Source of the DNA: a virus
Lineage: Duplodnaviria > Heunggongvirae > Uroviricota > Caudoviricetes
DNA: 8,626 nucleotides
Reading direction: 5' to 3' (one strand)
Virus record (IMG/VR): IMGVR_UViG_2698536618_000012
Span: 1-8,626 of that record
Both the position numbers and the translations under genes were made by a program. The notes under the pieces are model-generated. The model was not told the DNA's origin and did no database searches. It saw only the letters and a program-made list of their open reading frames with translations. Positions 1,644 through 8,363 of the stretch are shown here, in pieces; position 1 is the stretch's first letter, and each line of letters begins with the position of its first letter.

Positions 1644-1818
1644 AACTGCGGGTGCTTGAGGCTATCTGTCTCAGGCATGAACACCAAAAGGCAGATAGAG
1701 AAAAGCCCCAGTTAACATTACGCGTCCTGCAAGACGCTTAACATTAATCTGAGGCCATATCTATGCGACACATAGAGATTAGCCTCTTACGGACCGAAAG
1801 GTCAAGGAGAAGCAGGCT

Positions 1819-1974
1819 ATGAAGCAGCAAAAGGCGATGTTAATCGCCCTGATCGTCATCTGTTTAACCGTCATAGTGACGGCACTGGTAACGAGGAAAG
1901 ACCTCTGCGAGGTACGAATCCGAACCGGCCAGACGGAGGTCGCTGTCTTCACAGCTTACGAACCTGAGGAGTAA
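1819..1974 (+). CDS. hokD: Hok/Gef-family type I toxin (51 aa)
   Basis: Own translation MKQQKAMLIALIVICLTVIVTALVTRKDLCEVRIRTGQTEVAVFTAYEPEE matches the Hok/Gef family signature (single TM helix then TRKDLCEV..R..GQTEVAVF.AYE); to my recollection it matches HokD (RelF) of the E. coli Qin prophage. Confidence 0.88.
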   Translation: MKQQKAMLIALIVICLTVIVTALVTRKDLCEVRIRTGQTEVAVFTAYEPEE

Positions 1975-2788: not shown

Positions 2789-3838
2789 GTGCGGGTATTA
2801 CTTCGACCTGTTCTGGTACCGGAACTCGGGCTGGTGATCGTTAAGCCGGGCCGTGAATCCATGCCGGTATTCCACAATACCCGGGTACTGGTGGAGCCGG
2901 AACCGAAAAGCATGCGTAATCTGCCGTCCGGGGTCGTTCCTGCCGTTCGCCAGCCGCTGGCGGAGGATAAATCATTACTGCCATTTTTCAGCGACGAACG
3001 AGTGATTCGTGCTGCTGGTGGCGCTGGCGCATTGTCTGACTGGTTACTGCGCCATGTTAAATCCTGCCAGTGGCCACACGGCGATTATCACCACAGTGAA
3101 ACCGTCATTCACCGTTATGGTACCGGCGCAATGGTGTTGTGCTGGCACTGCGACAACCAGTTGCGTGATCAGACCTCCGAATCACTTGAGCAACTTGCTC
3201 ACCGAAACTTGTCAGCATGGATGATTGACGTCATTCGTCACGCAATGAATGGCACACAGGAGCGTGAATTATCGCTGGCTGAATTATCCTGGTGGGCGGC
3301 CTGCAATCAGGTGGTGGATGCACTACCTGAGGCAGTAGCGCGTCGTTCGCTGGGATTACCAGCGGAAAAAATCCGCTCCGTATACCGTGAGAGTGACATC
3401 GTACCGGGAGAACAGACAGCCATCAGCATACTGAAGCAGCGCACAAAAAATATTGCGCTGCCACTTCACGTCCACCAGCAACAAAATCCACCACAGAAAA
3501 AAACGGTTGTCAGTATCGCCGTTGATCCGGAGTCTCCTGAATCGTTCATGAGGCGACCTAAACGTTGCCGTTGGGTTAATGAGAAATACACGCGCTGGGT
3601 AAAGACACAGCCGTGTGCGTGTTGTGGTAAGCCTGCTGACGATCCGCATCACCTGATTGGTCATGGTCAGGGGGGAATGGGGACAAAGGCCCACGATATT
3701 TTCACGCTACCGTTGTGCCGGGAGCACCACAACGAACTTCATGCAGACCCGCTGGAGTTTGAGAAAAAGTACGGCTCTCAGATTGAGTTAATTTTTCGTT
3801 TTCTTGATCACGCCTTTGCAACTGGCGTGCTTGGGTAA
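2789..3838 (+). CDS. ydfU: DUF968/YdfU-like prophage protein (349 aa) with a C-terminal HNH-like Cys/His motif (putative nuclease)
   Basis: GTG start 2789 with GGAGG 4 nt upstream. C-terminal PCACCGKPADDPHHLIGHGQGG...LPLCREHHNELH is HNH/zinc-finger-like; a second Cys/His cluster is CQWPHGDYHH...CWHCDNQ. Length and position upstream of rusA fit the YdfU/DUF968 family as I recall it. Confidence 0.75.
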   Translation: MRVLLRPVLVPELGLVIVKPGRESMPVFHNTRVLVEPEPKSMRNLPSGVVPAVRQPLAEDKSLLPFFSDERVIRAAGGAGALSDWLLRHVKSCQWPHGDYHHSETVIHRYGTGAMVLCWHCDNQLRDQTSESLEQLAHRNLSAWMIDVIRHAMNGTQERELSLAELSWWAACNQVVDALPEAVARRSLGLPAEKIRSVYRESDIVPGEQTAISILKQRTKNIALPLHVHQQQNPPQKKTVVSIAVDPESPESFMRRPKRCRWVNEKYTRWVKTQPCACCGKPADDPHHLIGHGQGGMGTKAHDIFTLPLCREHHNELHADPLEFEKKYGSQIELIFRFLDHAFATGVLG

Positions 3839-3850
3839 AAGAGGTGACTG

Positions 3851-4210
3851 ATGCTCATAGATTTGGTTTTACCTTACCCGCCGACGGTGAACACTTACTG
3901 GCGACGCCGTGGCAGCACATATTTTATCTCGGAGGAGGGAAAGCGTTATCGCCGGGCTGTGGCGCTTATTGTTCGCCAGCAGCGGCTGAAATTAAGCCTG
4001 TCCGGAAGGCTGGCGATAAAGGTGATTGCAGAGCCACCGGATAAGCGTCGTCGCGACCTGGACAACATTCTGAAAGCACCGCTGGATGCGCTGACGCATG
4101 CGGGAGTGCTCATTGATGATGAGCAGTTTGATGAAATCAATATTGTACGTGGTCAGCCAGTATCTGGTGGACGGCTGGGTGTGAAGATTTACAAAATTGA
4201 GAGTGAGTGA
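3851..4210 (+). CDS. rusA: RusA-family Holliday junction resolvase (crossover junction endodeoxyribonuclease)
   Basis: 119 aa with SD AGAGG 7 nt upstream. Translation carries the RusA hallmarks (N-terminal LPYPPTVNTYWRRRG, catalytic-region RRRDLDN, C-terminal GG.L...I) and aligns by eye with E. coli RusA. Confidence 0.9.
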   Translation: MLIDLVLPYPPTVNTYWRRRGSTYFISEEGKRYRRAVALIVRQQRLKLSLSGRLAIKVIAEPPDKRRRDLDNILKAPLDALTHAGVLIDDEQFDEINIVRGQPVSGGRLGVKIYKIESE

Positions 4211-4218
4211 GCGTAAAT

Positions 4219-4749
4219 ATGATATATCCGGAAATTACAGGCAAAAGCGGCGAACATTTACGCCTGAACACGCTGGAAGCAGTCTGGATCCAGGGGAAAT
4301 TACGGATGTGGGGGCGGTGGTCGTATATCGGTGGGGGTAAATCCGGAAATATGTTTAACCGGTTACTGGTTTCGAAAAAGCTGACGAAAACAGCAGTTAA
4401 TGAGGTTTTACGCAGAATGAAGAAATCCGGGCTGGAAAAACCGGAACTTGAGGCATTTTTTCGGGATATGACAAGAGGAAAGCAGAAGAGCTGGTTGTCA
4501 CATTGTACAGACACAGAGGCGTTGATTATTGATCGCGTTATCAGTGAGGTGCTTGGGGAATATCCCGGGCTAATCAATATTCTCCGGCAAAGGTACGAAG
4601 GACGGGGAATGAGTAAGAGAAAAATGGCAGAATGTTTAAATCGTACTCACCCGGAATGGTGTTTCAGCACATGTGAGAAACGTATTGCAGGTTGGTTAGC
4701 CGTGGCTGAACACATGCTTTATGTACCTATGCACGATTCATTTCGATAA
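4219..4749 (+). CDS. putative late-gene antiterminator (Q-like) protein, 176 aa; functional assignment is positional
   Basis: ORF immediately downstream of rusA (the canonical Q position in lambdoid phages) and followed by a hairpin-rich leader and strong intrinsic terminator. ATG 4219 is preferred over GTG 4207, which overlaps the rusA stop. No Q-family motif could be verified by eye. Confidence 0.55.
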   Translation: MIYPEITGKSGEHLRLNTLEAVWIQGKLRMWGRWSYIGGGKSGNMFNRLLVSKKLTKTAVNEVLRRMKKSGLEKPELEAFFRDMTRGKQKSWLSHCTDTEALIIDRVISEVLGEYPGLINILRQRYEGRGMSKRKMAECLNRTHPEWCFSTCEKRIAGWLAVAEHMLYVPMHDSFR

Positions 4750-5338: not shown

Positions 5339-6418
5339 ATGGCTAATACTGTAAAAATATCCAGTTGTGAGTTAATCAACGCTGATTGCCTGGAATTTAT
5401 CCAGACCTTACCGGAAAACTCTGTCGATCTGATAGTCACAGACCCGCCATACTTTAAAGTGAAGCCCGAGGGCTGGGATAACCAGTGGAAGGGCGACGAT
5501 GATTACCTGAAGTGGCTGGACCAGTGTCTGGCGCAGTTCTGGCGGGTGCTGAAACCTGCCGGAAGTCTTTACCTGTTCTGTGGCCATCGCCTGGCATCTG
5601 ATATCGAAATCATGATGCGTGAACGCTTCAGTGTGCTGAACCATATTATCTGGGCGAAGCCGTCCGGACGCTGGAACGGATGCAACAAGGAAAGCCTGCG
5701 GGCGTATTTCCCCGCCACAGAGCGCATTCTGTTCGCGGAACATTATCAGGGGCCGTATCGTCCGAAAGATGCCGGGTATGCGGCGAAGGGCAGTGCACTG
5801 AAACAGCATGTGATGGCCCCGCTGATTTCTTACTTTCGTGATGCGCGTGCTGCTCTGGGGATAACGGCAAAACAGATTGCAGATGCCACAGGAAAGAAAA
5901 ACATGGTGTCGCACTGGTTCAGTGCCAGTCAGTGGCAGCTACCGAACGAAAGCGATTATCTGAAATTACAGTCGCTGTTTGCCCGGGTGGCAGAAGAGAA
6001 ACATCAGCGGGGTGAACTGGAAAAGCCACATCACCAACTGGTCAGCACATACAGTGAGCTGAACCGGCAAAACCGGCAATATGCCAGCCTGCTGGAGGAG
6101 TACAAATCTTTGCGGCGTTATTTTTCTGTATCGGCTGCTGTTCCGTATACGGATGTCTGGATGTATAAGCCTGTACAGTATTATCCGGGCAAACACCCCT
6201 GTGAAAAACCGGCAGATATGTTGCGTCAGATAATAGAGGCCAGCAGTCGTCCGGGTGATTTGGTTGCCGACTTTTTTATGGGGTCAGGTTCCACGATAAA
6301 AGCCGCGCTTTCGCTTGGTCGTCGGGCAATAGGCGTTGAGCTTGAGGCTGAACGGTTTGAGCAGACGGTGAGCGAGATAAGAGAAATTCTGACGTGTAAA
6401 GCTGTTGAAAATATATAA
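5339..6418 (+). CDS. orphan beta-class DNA methyltransferase (N6_N4_Mtase family; DPPY motif suggests N6-adenine)
   Basis: 359 aa. Catalytic motif IV DLIVTDPPYF lies near the N-terminus and the AdoMet-binding motif I DFFMGSGST near the C-terminus, with a roughly 200-aa target-recognition region between. This is the beta-class order, and overall architecture resembles YhdJ-like adenine methyltransferases. No restriction endonuclease gene is evident nearby. Confidence 0.9.
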   Translation: MANTVKISSCELINADCLEFIQTLPENSVDLIVTDPPYFKVKPEGWDNQWKGDDDYLKWLDQCLAQFWRVLKPAGSLYLFCGHRLASDIEIMMRERFSVLNHIIWAKPSGRWNGCNKESLRAYFPATERILFAEHYQGPYRPKDAGYAAKGSALKQHVMAPLISYFRDARAALGITAKQIADATGKKNMVSHWFSASQWQLPNESDYLKLQSLFARVAEEKHQRGELEKPHHQLVSTYSELNRQNRQYASLLEEYKSLRRYFSVSAAVPYTDVWMYKPVQYYPGKHPCEKPADMLRQIIEASSRPGDLVADFFMGSGSTIKAALSLGRRAIGVELEAERFEQTVSEIREILTCKAVENI

Positions 6419-6480
6419 GTATGGGGTGTAAAGTTGTTCTCGAAAATAATCATGTTTTCTCACGAATCAGAGGGGGGATA

Positions 6481-6741
6481 ATGATTGAGGTTCGATGGAC
6501 AAGGACAGCCCTGAAGCAGTTACTTCGTGTGGATACGCGGTATCGGCAGGCGATAAAGGATAAGGTCGGTGCGCTAAAGGATTTTCCTCTGGTAGCCATG
6601 GATTTTAAAAAGCTATCAGGGAGTGACAATCGATTCCGTTTGAGGGTCGGCGTGTACAGGGTTATTTTTGATGTTGAGGATGGTGATCCTGTTGTCCTGG
6701 ATATTAAGGAAATTAAGCGCAGAAGCACAACCACATACTAA
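6481..6741 (+). CDS. type II toxin, RelE/ParE superfamily (toxin-first, HigB-like gene order)
   Basis: ATG 6481 with strong SD GAGGGGGG 5 nt upstream. The 86-aa product has the RelE/ParE pattern (..RFRLRVGVYRVIFDVEDGDPVVLDIKEIKRR...Y). The track ORF start at 6421 is probably an over-extension. Confidence 0.8.
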   Translation: MIEVRWTRTALKQLLRVDTRYRQAIKDKVGALKDFPLVAMDFKKLSGSDNRFRLRVGVYRVIFDVEDGDPVVLDIKEIKRRSTTTY

Positions 6742-6801
6742 GGGAGGCTGGCGGGAGACCGCCAGTTTGCTGAACGACATTCAATCGCGAAAGGCAATGA
6801 T

Positions 6802-7176
6802 ATGAAAAACAGTGTCCAGTTTATTACTGATAATGCCGGTGTTAGAACCGGGGTCATTATGTCAGTTGCTGAATATGAACGGCTGTTAAGTCTGGCAGAT
6901 CCTGATGATGATTTTGAAAGCATCCAGTATGAAGCCGGAGAGCATGACAATGAAACAATACCTCATGAAGTAGTATCCATCATGATTGATGATGATGTGT
7001 CATTGTTGGCAGCATGGCGGATTTACAGGCGAATGACTCAACAGGAAGTGGCGGAGCGCCTGGGGGTTAAACAGTCAGCCGTATCTCAGTTTGAGAGAGC
7101 AGGAGCTCCGCGAAAATCAACACTGGAAAAACTGGCTGAGATTTACAACTGCCGACCAAATCAGTTGGCTGATTAA
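6802..7176 (+). CDS. antitoxin with N-terminal Phd/YefM-like segment and C-terminal XRE-type HTH (124 aa)
   Basis: AAGG 7 nt upstream of ATG. N-terminus NAGVRTGVIMSVAEYERLLSL resembles the YefM/Phd motif; C-terminus LLAAWRIYRRMTQQEVAERLGVKQSAVSQFERAG...LEKLAEIY is a classic HTH_XRE. Lies directly downstream of the toxin. Confidence 0.8.
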   Translation: MKNSVQFITDNAGVRTGVIMSVAEYERLLSLADPDDDFESIQYEAGEHDNETIPHEVVSIMIDDDVSLLAAWRIYRRMTQQEVAERLGVKQSAVSQFERAGAPRKSTLEKLAEIYNCRPNQLAD

Positions 7177-7321
7177 TCCTGAGTTTGGTTTTCGTAGCGA
7201 TTGCATTTTTCTTATCTGCTTGCCGTTGTAGGTAGCGTGTATTTGCATGTTGTTTTGTAGTTAACCTTATGGTTGGCTGAATTTTGTTCATCAATAAAAA
7301 ATATCCCTCTCTGATCTTTAA

Positions 7322-7346
7322 GGTTCGCTTTGGCGGACCTTTTTTT
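7322..7346 (+). terminator. intrinsic terminator downstream of the toxin-antitoxin pair
   Basis: GGTTCGC-tttg-GCGGACC: 7-bp stem including one G-U pair, followed by TTTTTTT. Confidence 0.7.
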
Positions 7347-7482
7347 ATTTCCGCGCCACGCCCGGCGTACATCAAAAACCACAGAGCCTTTCAGGGGTGA
7401 GCTTACGGGATGGTCAGTGTGACTTTCTCTGTGGGCTGGTCACCCCCGGGCGCAGGCTCACCCACTAAAAGGAAAAGTCACG

Positions 7483-7914
7483 ATGTTTGGTATTTTCAAA
7501 AAGAAAACCCGCAGAGCAGCAACTGAAATTAAAAAGTTTGAGAAACGCGATCTGGCACAGGCGGTTATTAATGCTGCCTACCTGGTGGCCTATGCAGATG
7601 GTGAATGTGAGACTTCAGAGAAAGTGAAGATCGAACAGGTATTACGTAACCAGCCAGCATTGTCCGCATTTACGTCAGAAATTAATGCCATCAGTGCCAC
7701 GATCACAGGTCAGCTTGACACCAATTTTAAAATTGGTCGTCGTGCAGCGTTGCGTGAAATTGAAGATGTGAAACACGATACGCGTGAAGCGGAAGATGTG
7801 CTGGATGTGGCGGTGGCCATTGCTGAAGCAGATGGTGAAATTGAGCCGGAAGAGCGTAAGGTTCTGGAAGAGATTGCTGGTGTTCTTGGCCTGCGACTGG
7901 AGAACCACCTGTGA
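7483..7914 (+). CDS. TerB-domain protein (tellurite-resistance TerB-like, 143 aa)
   Basis: SD AAGGA 8 nt upstream. Two copies of the TerB-type helical motif (hydrophobic-x-A-x-A-D-G-x-acidic...E-K/R): AAYLVAYADGECETSEKVKIEQVL and DVAVAIAEADGEIEPEERKVLEEIAGVLGL. Confidence 0.7.
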   Translation: MFGIFKKKTRRAATEIKKFEKRDLAQAVINAAYLVAYADGECETSEKVKIEQVLRNQPALSAFTSEINAISATITGQLDTNFKIGRRAALREIEDVKHDTREAEDVLDVAVAIAEADGEIEPEERKVLEEIAGVLGLRLENHL

Positions 7915-8078
7915 CGGTAAAACTGCGTCTGGCCGCTGTGGCACTCCTGCTGTTTCTGGTGGTGATGGTGGATTTCACCAGCAGGATCATGTCGGTGCTG
8001 GCGGATGGAGTGCTGGTCTGCGGCATTGTGGTATTGCTGTGGCCGGTGATAAAAAGAAACAGCCTGCATAATGCTTGA
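7911..8078 (+). CDS. small two-helix membrane peptide (55 aa), translationally coupled to the TerB-like gene
   Basis: GTG 7911 overlaps the TerB stop (GTGA); GGAGAA sits 6 nt upstream. Own translation VTVKLRLAAVALLLFLVVMVDFTSRIMSVLADGVLVCGIVVLLWPVIKRNSLHNA shows two hydrophobic stretches. Not in the track (under 60 aa); an alternative start at ATG 7965 would give 37 aa. Confidence 0.45.
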   Translation: MTVKLRLAAVALLLFLVVMVDFTSRIMSVLADGVLVCGIVVLLWPVIKRNSLHNA

Positions 8079-8243
8079 TTTTTTTGTTTGCTGTTTATTA
8101 AAAACACTTCTGCATGGTGAATCCCCCTGTGCGGTGGGGCAATCAGCAAGAAGGAATATGGGGTAATCGCGGATTCAGGTGCTGATACTGAATTCACCGG
8201 GAGGCACCCGGCACCATGCAAGAAAAAGAATGTGCATGCAAAC

Positions 8244-8271
8244 ATGCCCCTCTCCGGAGGGGCATTTTTTA
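8244..8271 (+). terminator. strong intrinsic terminator (9-bp stem ATGCCCCTC-tccg-GAGGGGCAT followed by TTTTTT)
   Basis: Read directly from the sequence. An adjacent hairpin GCCCGAA-tggg-TTCGGGC (8284-8301), preceded by AAAAAA, would act as a terminator for the opposite strand, so the pair may be bidirectional. Confidence 0.7.
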
Positions 8272-8363
8272 TGGGTAAAAAATGCCCGAATGGGTTCGGG
8301 CAATAGCATGAGATACTGATATTGTTGTGTTGTTATCGTGTGGATTTTAACCAGGGTTTATCA

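Follow-up and report, generated by a model that had tools for sequence, protein, structure and literature searches.

Genes and features at the locus

The window, i.e., the whole 8,626-nt stretch of viral DNA analyzed here, contains a tciA-tciB locus of the Escherichia coli lambdoid prophage type, set in the accessory ("moron") region between Q and the lysis genes. Profile searches identified a Q-like antiterminator (4207-4749), an N6/N4 methyltransferase (5339-6418), a ParE/RelE-type toxin (6421-6741), and an HTH protein (6802-7176). These are followed on the + strand by a 5′ leader, the tciA and tciB genes, and an STnc100 sRNA element. The flanking gene matches agree with the setting proposed in an earlier note on this DNA, in which a TA module and a methyltransferase lay beside the pair in a prophage accessory slot.

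The same note placed the pair between intrinsic terminators, which is accurate on the upstream side: the upstream unit ends on the + strand in a terminator at 7320-7347 (stem AAGGTTCGC/GCGGACCTT at 7320-7341, 9 bp with 5 GC pairs, then a T-run). An equivalent terminator lies immediately 5′ of all enterobacterial leader copies and of all paralogous leader variants. On the downstream side, no terminator-like site was predicted immediately 3′ of tciB; the first to follow on the + strand (8244-8265) is the terminator of STnc100, and the pair is bracketed only if this element is included. STnc100 (8083-8276, + strand; Rfam RF02076, 139.4 bits) starts 5 nt past the tciB stop. It accompanies tciAB in phages of E. 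coli and Klebsiella and holds the same position after tciB in phage JLK-2012, a Klebsiella phage, and IMG/VR loci, and it may form the 3′ end of the tciAB transcription unit. A consensus scan found no sigma-70-like promoter between the upstream terminator and the leader, and a −10 candidate picked by eye (CATATC) was dropped for want of the invariant final T. ARAGORN found no tRNA in the whole window, and a tRNA or tRNA-like identity for the leader was rejected on this result. In many other carrier phages, tRNA genes lie near or flank the tciAB element.

TciA and TciB

The tciA gene (7483-7914, + strand) encodes a 143-aa cytoplasmic protein of the TerB family. Its two TerB-type motifs, AYADGECETSEK at residues 35-46 and AEADGEIEPEERK at residues 113-125, are present as the earlier note had described them, and the Pfam search proposed there returned TerB (PF05099) over residues 26-138 (E 3.2e-15, 56.9 bits vs a cut-off of 24.4). 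PHROG 632 matches the full length of the protein (E 8.6e-69) and the Klebsiella TerB structure 2JXU aligns to residues 14-137 (E 1.2e-7), while a DUF533 match fell below threshold (E 4e-5, 23.7 bits vs 29.6). The best fold matches of an AF2 model with a pLDDT of 88.2 were 2H5N and 2OU3 (COG3793 tellurite-resistance protein); in Foldseek these reached probabilities of 1.00 (TM 0.55-0.62) and 0.91, respectively, with weak E-values of 0.02 or worse. A single-sequence AF2 model (pLDDT 58) was set aside as too poor.

TciA carries two D-G-x5-E motifs, in which D39, E46, and E124 do not vary, and G40 and D117 hardly vary, across 10 aligned phage TciA/TerB proteins; among 35 homologues, G118 and E124 are invariant. 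The N-terminal residues 1-22 are basic (net +7) and the body is acidic, giving a net charge of −6 for the whole protein, which has no hydrophobic segment (19-aa hydropathy maximum of 0.88). A longer tciA frame running through the leader was rejected, as no in-frame start exists between the upstream stop and the tciA ATG, and the leader region holds no other + strand ORF of at least 40 aa.

The tciB gene (7911-8078, + strand) encodes a 55-aa DUF3927 protein, predicted to form an inner-membrane hairpin of two TM segments (Pfam E 1.7e-16, 60.3 bits vs a cut-off of 25; PHROG 1470 E 2.7e-29). Its GTG start lies within ctGTGAc, giving a 4-nt overlap with the tciA stop, and GGAG stands 9 nt upstream, matching the GTGA overlap and separate SD noted earlier. 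Kyte-Doolittle analysis likewise recovered the two hydrophobic segments, with K/R at both ends; the 15-residue means peak at 2.83 (residues 7-21) and 2.71 (residues 29-43 and 33-47), with DFTSR in between. Conservation of this small ORF had been set beforehand as a test. We found a protein-level identity of 37-70% across eight very different phages, with the motif DFTS...LADGVLV...WP retained, and TciB lies directly 3′ of TciA in 24 of 28 complete species-level genome loci, the co-occurrence that the note had suggested checking. TciB is therefore not a chance ORF. Its protein-database relatives form 625 clusters, and the best 120 of these 625 are 51-90 aa long with DUF3927 as the sole domain. 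The two genes overlap or abut in nearly all of 33 loci, through GTGA, TGATG, TAATG, or TAAATG junctions, and from the GTGA sequence we infer that tciB is translationally coupled to tciA.

Identity and spread of the gene pair

The two-gene layout had been thought not to correspond to a named system. This was wrong: the P1 record AF234172 annotates tciA, tciB, and tciC, and PHROGs lists both families, 632 as "tellurite resistance" and 1470 as [quoted passage not shown]. Phage JLK-2012 also annotates tciA/tciB, likewise between Q and the lysis genes. Judged by sequence, the window pair is the already known phage accessory gene pair tciA-tciB, with a TciA identity to P1 of 40.6-51.4%, varying with the P1 record.

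A 99.8%-identical copy is present in RefSeq (WP_001299895.1 / WP_000216623.1). Among complete E. coli genomes, 1275 of 5426 (about a quarter) contain a match, which in 790 of them covers at least 80% of the query, and matching genomes carry it at a median of 3 places and at up to 10. Adjacent TciA-TciB pairs occur in P1-like, lambdoid, Klebsiella, virulent N4-like, and Erwinia jumbo phages; in the N4-like phages FSL SP-076 and Pollock, the pair lies amid dUTPase and replication genes. The partnership is not obligatory, since phage 434 has TciB without TciA, and a TerB protein occurs without TciB in Pseudomonas and Vibrio phages and in 4 of the 28 genome loci. About 23% of the IMG/VR copies of tciA are disrupted. 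The only single-polypeptide TerB+DUF3927 proteins found (P0126 and P0186) are rare frameshift fusions, and we rejected them as Rosetta-stone support for a TciA-TciB interaction for that reason. CRISPRi indicates that P1 can do without tciA, tciB, and tciC (PMC10695390), and the operon is lost in about half of one P1 subgroup (PMC9603915).

A conserved leader upstream of tciA

The tciA gene is preceded on the + strand by a structured 5′ leader (about 7371-7482), delimited by a covariance model (CM) and by base-pair conservation. It comprises stem A (7379-7386 with 7427-7434, 8 bp), an anti-SD helix identified from pair counts (CCUUU at 7387-7391 with the SD AAAGG at 7468-7472), stem B (7395-7403 with 7455-7463), stem C (7407-7417 with 7436-7446), and a competing hairpin D (7412-7416 with 7420-7424). 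Reading the sequence immediately upstream (7353-7375) reveals a hairpin, P0 (GCGCC-ACGCCC-GGCGT, 7353-7368), followed by a conserved CATC/CATATC motif; a promoter spacer, a processing site, and a part of the RNA are candidate roles for this segment. P0 is conserved in the leader alignment, being replaced in Erwinia phages by a hairpin with another stem (CACATC...GATGTG) and in the paralogous variants by GCGC-loop-GCGC.

In the window, the CM matches 7371-7485 with 132.8 bits. Each locus yields a single match, the 3′ end of which always falls at the tciA ATG. The leader is ~80% identical to that of a Klebsiella phage, whereas the encoded proteins are only ~41% identical. Across about a dozen lineages and four paralogous variants, 91.7% of the cells in the leader helices are paired, compared to at most 51% when the helices are slid, and the SD helix is 99% paired. 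Compensatory changes support four helices, among them the one that joins CCUUU to the SD AAAGG. The alignment used for these counts was fitted to helices B and C and the anti-SD helix and not to stem A, which RNAalifold finds independently and which, although outside the alignment model, is 92% paired. The variant leaders were aligned with the CM, as a MAFFT version was out of register.

The minimum-energy fold is the antiSD+B+C hairpin in 7 of 10 lineages tested, with an SD pair probability of 0.5-1.0 in most lineages, while it differs from this hairpin for window-type and JLK-type leaders. The OFF fold has an energy of −27.9 kcal/mol vs −14.1 for A+D, and the 5′ half by itself folds into stem A. 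The "structured leader" of the earlier note is upheld by comparative pairing and not by folding energy by itself, which is unexceptional in the window (z −1.41 vs shuffles); the predicted leader structure is founded on comparison, not on thermodynamics.

Rfam 15 gave no match to the leader at E ≤ 1 in the window and none better than E 2.6 for 7330-7500 alone; there was no match for the variant leaders either, C4, c4-a1b1, and isrK included. A known RNA family was therefore rejected as the identity of the leader, and a text search of 8 million papers with leader sequence strings found no mention of it. Divergent leader paralogues occur in the same prophages 5′ of antirepressor-type and uncharacterized genes. 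So far, the genes found behind a leader are tciA, antirepressor-type genes (KilAC/ANT, P22_AR_N, and KilA-N), and uncharacterized ORFs.

Proposed function and alternative explanations

We propose, with moderate confidence in the explanation as a whole, that the window holds tciA-tciB, that TciA and TciB act as a membrane module, and that the leader gates their expression. In this module, the cytoplasmic TerB-fold TciA most likely works with TciB at the inner membrane. TciA would be a soluble all-helical protein that bears two acidic D-G-x5-E motifs and begins with a strongly basic segment, and TciB a 2-TM hairpin of the inner membrane, produced in coupled stoichiometry by virtue of its overlapping start codon. 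TciB could be the membrane partner that localizes TciA at the cytoplasmic face, or could be gated by TciA there, as TerC does for TerB in ter operons. TerB is reported as an interaction partner of TerC and as membrane-associated or amphitropic in passages of PMC11003894 (citing Turkovicova 2016), 10.1101/2022.05.11.491447, and 10.1101/2025.09.30.679545 (citing Alekhina 2011). In doing so, the pair would act on a membrane- or ion-linked stress state of the cell, whether infected or lysogenic, in a way that benefits the phage. Since virulent phages also carry the pair, the main gain probably goes to phage development, through host takeover or membrane homeostasis in infection, rather than to lysogen defense. 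At the level of expression, the ~100-nt conserved leader would gate tciA translation: a stable, long, and irregular hairpin (antiSD+B+C) would hide the SD AAAGG, while stem A and hairpin D would make up an alternative or pseudoknotted state, forming first during transcription. Translation of tciB would follow that of tciA through coupling.

The pair might instead protect the lysogen. In this view, a TerB-type sensor of the membrane or of infection (TciA) and a small effector in the membrane (TciB) would together exclude or abort infection by other phages. TerB-domain proteins do occur in the validated anti-phage systems Bunzi and Shango (10.1101/2022.05.11.491447; 10.1101/2022.11.11.516204), and Dionysus joins a TerB-like protein to membrane and pore-forming proteins (10.1101/2025.09.30.679545). 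The setting is also suggestive, i.e., a prophage moron slot beside a TA pair and a methyltransferase, with terminators bracketing the pair as in other lysogenic-conversion cassettes, and the tciABC region is among the hypervariable regions of P1-like elements (PMC9603915). However, when we ran the PADLOC check suggested in the note (PADLOC-DB 2.0.0, Bunzi and Shango included), no system model matched TciA or TciB at E ≤ 0.01, the best being PDC-S48 for TciA (E 0.012, 12.7 bits) and none for TciB. A lone-domain 55-aa hairpin is, moreover, unlike all known effectors, and the consensus scan gave no promoter for lysogenic expression. The spread of the pair to virulent N4-like and jumbo phages, which form no lysogens, further argues against a purely lysogen-protecting role, and we consider lysogen defense unlikely.

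A separate question is whether the leader acts as RNA at all, as its conservation could also reflect a DNA-level element (promoter or operator) or a recombination junction of moron cassettes. Several observations are in line with this: two different antirepressor ORFs share leader variant v2, the leader and about the first 23 codons behave like a mosaic block whose conservation exceeds that of the gene body, and the folding z-score in the window is ordinary. Yet compensatory double changes affect 20 of 33 leader pairs, a level reached in 0 of 500 shuffles, and stem A, left unmodeled, has 4 of its 7 pairs doubly changed. G-U pairs, which function on the + strand only, are frequent in the leader helices, so that the structure is strand-specific. 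Finally, the anti-SD and SD sequences change in concert in variant v5, and the paralogous variants retain the helices despite differing sequences. We accordingly judge a purely DNA-level or junction origin of this conservation to be quite improbable.

It is a recognized theme that phages carry homologues of host immune components that act as inhibitors, and this precedent would fit a counter-defense role, in which a phage TerB homologue and its membrane partner mimic or titrate host TerB surveillance of the ter, Shango, Bunzi, or Dionysus type. The pair occurs in early or DNA-metabolism regions of virulent and jumbo phages, and in temperate phages too. Jumbo phages are also the specific target of Dionysus, itself a TerB system (10.1101/2025.09.30.679545). 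Nevertheless, this role is purely inferential, TciA and TciB show no similarity to the PADLOC defense-system TerB models, and the presence of up to 10 places per E. coli strain would be left unexplained, which makes counter-defense very unlikely in our assessment. A ter-like lysogenic conversion, i.e., tellurite and/or pore-forming-colicin resistance or cell-division inhibition as the P1 names imply, is likewise very unlikely: TciA is homologous to the ter-operon TerB, the P1 annotation (AF234172) reads "by homology", and a passage of PMC8123226 ties ter operons to tellurite, phage, and colicin resistance, but tellurite resistance requires terBCDE jointly (PMC8115787), the window has no TerC, TerD, or TerE homologue, and a phage-borne TerB alone is not known to confer resistance.

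A candidate RNA-switch family

The leader is more interesting than the tciA-tciB genes themselves. We tentatively suggest, at somewhat less than even confidence, that the tciA leader founds an undescribed RNA-switch family and that TciAB is a phage-side TerB membrane module during infection. Under this joint reading, members of the family would be ~100-120 nt long and ordered as terminator, P0, stem A, anti-SD, and helices B and C, always with a duplicated 3′ partner of the C 5′ strand and, with it, the competing hairpin D. Such switches would control the translation of accessory genes of various kinds, both in lambdoid prophages of enterobacteria and in Erwinia jumbo phages. They might respond to a ligand, to temperature, to a phage factor, or to the transcript itself, by way of its 5′ end or read-through status.

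With the gene pair already catalogued, a "new defense module" is not a discovery here. Still, tciAB is among the most widespread uncharacterized accessory pairs carried by prophages of E. coli, EHEC, and Klebsiella, and, with TerB domains newly implicated in membrane-linked anti-phage immunity, this very common prophage pair may belong on the defense or the counter-defense side. The leader adds a compact, covariation-supported RNA element outside Rfam, located 5′ of several prophage accessory genes including antirepressor-type ones. Were it a switch, it would account for the translational silencing or timing of genes embedded in the late operon, and well-studied pathogens would gain a new class of cis-regulatory RNA.

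Comparison with known systems

The closest relative is the tciA-tciB(-tciC) locus of bacteriophage P1, reportedly described by Lobocka et al. 2004. There too, a TciA of 141-143 aa is directly followed by a DUF3927 TciB of ~54 aa with overlapping stop and start; the P1 tci names rest on homology only, so that the function is a putative assignment. The P1 locus differs in having tciC, which appears P1-specific and in place of which the window has STnc100, in lacking a structured leader, with divergent upl promoters upstream of tciA instead, and in its position, as the window pair sits in the lambdoid slot between Q and lysis.

Similar to TerB-TerC of the ter operon (terZABCDEF), the pair combines a cytoplasmic TerB-fold protein, alignable to TerB over its full length, with an integral inner-membrane partner. 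However, the 55-aa hairpin TciB has no relationship to the multi-pass TerC, and tciAB is phage-borne, virulent phages included. No ORFs or Pfam hits for TerC, TerD, TerE, TerZ, or TerA were found in the window, nor any TerC- or TerD-family member in related loci. Dionysus (DinABC), Bunzi, and Shango likewise pair a TerB-like protein with membrane proteins, for which "membrane surveillance" has been proposed, but they are host-encoded and have larger partners (pore-forming toxin, helicase, ATPase). Judged by architecture, neither neighbor of tciA resembles DinA (MAEBL+TM) or DinC (4-TM pore-forming toxin). DjlA, described as a membrane-tethered TerB-like protein (10.1101/2024.08.29.610257), and DUF533/YebE also hold a TerB-like domain at the cytoplasmic face of the inner membrane; the tether is part of the same polypeptide there, whereas a separate, coupled peptide is proposed for TciA.

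For the leader, the position of its copies upstream of prophage ant/kilA-type genes recalls the C4/IsrK-type RNA control of antirepressors, although no leader copy matches the C4, c4-a1b1, or isrK families. In its architecture, the tciA leader is akin to SD-sequestering leaders and pseudoknot riboswitches, with an anti-SD:SD helix embedded in a larger fold and a loop that pairs with the 5′ flank.

The tciA–tciB gene pair and its distribution

The 143-aa ORF at 7483–7914 (+) and the 55-aa ORF at 7911–8078 (+) are tciA and tciB, a gene pair that is already known. The 143-aa product, described in the earlier note as TerB-type, scored above threshold with Pfam TerB (56.9 vs 24.4 bits), and the 55-aa product matched DUF3927 (60.3 bits, threshold 25); in PHROGs, both aligned full-length, to family 632 “tellurite resistance” (E 8.6e-69) and family 1470 (E 2.7e-29), respectively. 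Phage record PPyecE_EH1910 (99.1% DNA identity) is annotated with a TciA/TerB-like protein and JLK-2012 (85% DNA identity) with tciA/tciB, in the order Q, three tRNA genes, tciA, tciB, esterase, S, R, Rz. RefSeq also carries annotation for the pair, and TciA from the window is 40.6–51.4% identical to P1 TciA, depending on the P1 record. Given the PHROGs, phage-record, and RefSeq annotations, the layout is already named and catalogued: the earlier note had observed the locus correctly and its interpretation is partly supported, with the parts right but “undescribed” wrong.

Overall, the region 7300–8100 was matched in 1275 of 5426 complete E. coli genomes (≥80% of the query covered in 790), at a median of 3 and a maximum of 10 places per genome. 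A TciB homologue lies directly 3′ of TciA in P1, lambdoid phages, a Klebsiella phage, the virulent N4-like phages FSL SP-076 and Pollock, and Erwinia jumbo phages. We surveyed one representative genome per species, yielding 29 loci with a TciA relative (28 complete), and sought TciB with profiles built from our own alignments: TciB was immediately 3′ of TciA in 24 of the 28 complete loci. In nearly every case the tciA/tciB junction reads GTGA, TGATG, TAATG, or TAAATG, and translational coupling is therefore a conserved feature. The pairing has exceptions: phage 434 carries TciB without TciA, 86 nt 3′ of a 247-aa putative membrane protein (locus L132, 1663–2650), and TciB may therefore have other partners, while Pseudomonas and Vibrio phages encode the TerB protein alone, among nucleotide-metabolism genes. 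DUF3927 proteins formed 625 clusters in a large protein database, the best 120 of which were all 51–90 aa long with DUF3927 as sole domain. The only single chains found to join TerB and DUF3927 proved to be frameshift fusions.

Genomic setting

The window constitutes the right arm of a lambdoid E. coli prophage, in which ORF and Pfam analysis identified a DUF968 protein (2789–3838), RusA (3851–4210), a Q-like antiterminator (DUF1133/Phage_antitermQ, 4207–4749), an N6/N4 DNA methyltransferase (5339–6418), a ParE/RelE-type toxin (6421–6741, +), and a 124-aa HTH protein (6802–7176, +). The last two form a toxin-first arrangement (6421–7176, +), and the HTH partner is long with an acidic N-terminal half. 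A type I toxin–antitoxin locus, hok/sok, occupies 1650–1974 (+), where sok matched in Rfam at 1650–1821 (106.7 bits) and Hok is encoded by a 51-aa ORF at 1819–1974; a weak isrK-like match at 1983–2064 (26.6 bits) stayed under the gathering score. Downstream of the pair in the closest complete genome (99.8% identity over 7300–8100) come a SASA-family esterase, holin, lysozyme, and terminase, so that tciAB occupies the accessory-gene slot that separates Q from the lysis cassette.

The pair had been described as lying between intrinsic terminators. This held upstream, where an intrinsic terminator immediately precedes the unit (7320–7341 plus a T-run, +), but none was predicted directly 3′ of tciB, the next on the + strand being the terminator of the sRNA STnc100 (8244–8265). 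No promoter for the leader transcript was found in the terminator/promoter scan of the window. STnc100 itself (8083–8276, +; Rfam RF02076, 139.4 bits) starts 5 nt past the tciB stop. It is also found behind tciB in JLK-2012, a Klebsiella phage, and IMG/VR loci, and may derive from a 3′UTR or belong to one conserved leader–tciA–tciB–STnc100 module. In P1, a similar hairpin, CACCGGGAAGCACCCGGCACC, lies upstream of tciA. The anti-GcvB sRNA AgvB, which is prophage-encoded, is matched perfectly and at full length at 8277–8338 (−; Rfam, 96.5 bits), convergent with STnc100 and sharing its terminator region.

On the 5′ side, the tciA leader, or the gene itself, is in several phages immediately preceded by tRNA genes (loci L001, L002, L004, L006, and L242–L245): Asn and Thr in P1, Asn, Thr, and Gly in JLK-2012, Cys in Erwinia jumbo phages, and, at a remnant locus of E. 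coli, a tRNA annotated as Ile (CAT anticodon). This points to a message co-transcribed with tRNA precursors or processed from them. ISEc20 (IS110-family) is annotated beside a short match to 7322–7397 in PPompW and Stx2a phage records (H49–H53), and the region of the terminator and the P0 hairpin (7353–7368) may be a preferred insertion target.

A conserved structured leader

The leader 5′ of tciA (~7371–7482) proved the most distinctive feature of the locus. A Klebsiella phage retains 79.8% DNA identity to 7351–7552 with a TciA only ~41% identical, and Erwinia jumbo phages match the window from ~7370 onwards. A degenerate leader-derived pattern matched at least 120 contigs of IMG/VR; with the single exception of L048, a MFGIFKKK-type tciA ORF or its frameshifted remnant comes next. 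In the unbiased set of species-level upstream regions, the leader was present in 14 of 29, and absent from P1-type, Pectobacterium, Serratia, and Pseudomonas loci. No Rfam family matched any leader copy, variants included, and leader sequence strings had no match in a literature text search. Among the copies found by the pattern, ~23% have a disrupted tciA (e.g., IMG/VR loci L008, L010, L014, L024, L030, and L077), including a frameshift form of 16 aa that recurs, MFGIFGKKSPQSGNGN; in many of them the 5′ strand of stem B has a T-to-G change or a G-run expanded to as many as 12 G, which could reflect decay or a slippage-prone tract.

Five helices were identified first by inspection and then by pair counting: stem A (7379–7386/7427–7434, CCACAGAG/CUCUGUGG), an anti-SD:SD helix (7387–7391/7468–7472, CCUUU/AAAGG), stem B (7395–7403/7455–7463), stem C (7407–7417/7436–7446), and hairpin D (7412–7416/7420–7424), which competes with the lower half of C. 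The strands run A5′–antiSD–B5′–C5′–A3′–C3′–B3′–SD, i.e., antiSD, B, and C are nested and stem A crosses all three. Across 44 distinct leaders, 91.5% of cells pair vs ≤53% with slid partners; stem A reaches 97% pairing and shows AU-to-GC and CG-to-UA swaps, A+D is 92.4% paired, and RNAalifold predicted stem A independently. The GC-rich structured leader of the earlier note thus stands through conserved helices with compensatory changes, whereas its folding energy alone is unremarkable (z −1.41). With ViennaRNA, the antiSD+B+C hairpin was the MFE fold for the Klebsiella, L134, L139, L140, and Erwinia leaders (SD pairing probability 0.5–1.0); the L154 leader had a different MFE fold, as did the window and JLK leader types, where the SD G residues were still paired at 0.7–0.9. 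For the window leader, antiSD+B+C was estimated at −27.9 kcal/mol vs −14.1 for A+D, and the 5′ half alone folded into stem A.

A covariance model, R1, built on antiSD+B+C gave one match per locus, always ending at the tciA ATG, and weaker second matches on the same prophage contigs, which are divergent paralogues 5′ of other genes. Variant v2 (61.8 bits) precedes a KilAC/ANT antirepressor-type protein, v3 (44 bits) a P22_AR_N + ORF11CD3 protein, v4 (34 bits) two unknown ORFs, and v5 (17.5 bits) a KilA-N + ORF11CD3 protein (copies at L014 13802–13922; L025 8873–8993; L073 3830–3950(−) and 1348–1473(−); L008 7108–7226; L027 14228–14346; L149 5497–5596; L029 3716–3815; L076 157–256(−)). Every variant keeps the terminator, P0 hairpin, a CA(U/C)AUC-like motif, the duplicated 3′ partner for the C 5′ strand, and stems A, B, and C in other sequences (e.g., stem A as CCAAAGA/UCUUUGG or CCACCGAG/CUCGGUGG, stem B as GAUGAGCC/GGUUCAUC), and in v5 anti-SD and SD co-change (CCUG/CAGG). 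The v2 leader by itself reaches 532 of the 5426 complete E. coli genomes, and two different antirepressor ORFs are attached to it.

In the model-based alignment of 21 distinct sequences, drawn from about a dozen lineages plus four paralogues and fitted to three of the helices, 91.7% of cells pair and 20 of 33 pairs show double-sided changes (shuffled mean 7.5; 0 of 500 shuffles as high); stem A, outside the model, is 92% paired with 4 of 7 pairs doubly changed. G-U pairs are common, which makes the structure specific to the + strand. We infer that the leader would act as a translational gate, OFF in the stable fold, for which stem A and hairpin D would provide a co-transcriptional or pseudoknotted alternative state. 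This RNA family is the part of the locus that deserves follow-up.

The two proteins and their possible role

TciA residues 14–137 align with the solved Klebsiella TerB 2JXU (E 1.2e-7), and an AlphaFold2 model from 35 homologues is confidently all-helical (pLDDT 88.2, pTM 0.82), uncertainty being confined to the first 20 residues; its top structural matches, 2H5N (probability 1.00) and the COG3793 tellurite-resistance protein 2OU3 (0.91), had weak E-values. Acidic D-G...E motifs are invariant or nearly so among aligned homologues. TciA has no hydrophobic segment and a net charge of +7 in residues 1–22 (−6 overall), which fits an amphitropic protein docking on an anionic membrane or partner. The tciB GTG overlaps the tciA TGA within ctGTGAc, with GGAG 9 nt 5′, and the two hydrophobic helices reported for TciB were recovered at ~5–21 and ~26–47, separated by DFTSR and with basic residues at either end. 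Eight aligned TciB share K4, F22, L30, P45, K48, and a DFTS...LADGVLV motif. Temperate and virulent phages encode a TerB-fold soluble protein and a two-TM peptide on one coupled message.

Our literature search found no experiment assigning a function to tciA or tciB. A genome-wide CRISPRi screen of P1 scored tciA, tciB, and tciC as non-essential (PMC10695390), and the tciABC region is among eight hypervariable regions of P1-like phage-plasmids, lost from nearly half of one subgroup (PMC9603915). The earlier note suggested abortive infection or superinfection exclusion. Two validated defence systems, Bunzi and Shango, do contain TerB domains (10.1101/2022.05.11.491447; 10.1101/2022.11.11.516204), and Dionysus, directed against jumbo phages, joins a pore-forming toxin and a TM protein to a TerB-like protein (10.1101/2025.09.30.679545). 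Checked against PADLOC models, Bunzi and Shango included, neither TciA nor TciB matched, and carriage of the pair by virulent phages weakens defence or exclusion of other phages, the main rival reading, which we consider unlikely. Because N4-like and jumbo phages carry the pair, a benefit to phage development is likelier than pure lysogen defence. Counter-defence is a minor alternative, as is classical tellurite or colicin resistance; tellurite resistance requires terBCDE together (PMC8115787).

On the likeliest reading, TciB would be the membrane partner of TciA, and the pair would adjust a membrane-linked stress or ion state. The model for such a partnership is the ter operon, in which TerB is likewise accompanied by a membrane partner, being described in PMC11003894 as interacting with TerC at the inner membrane; the tethered TerB-like domains of DjlA and DUF533 offer a further analogy for TciB as the membrane partner of TciA.
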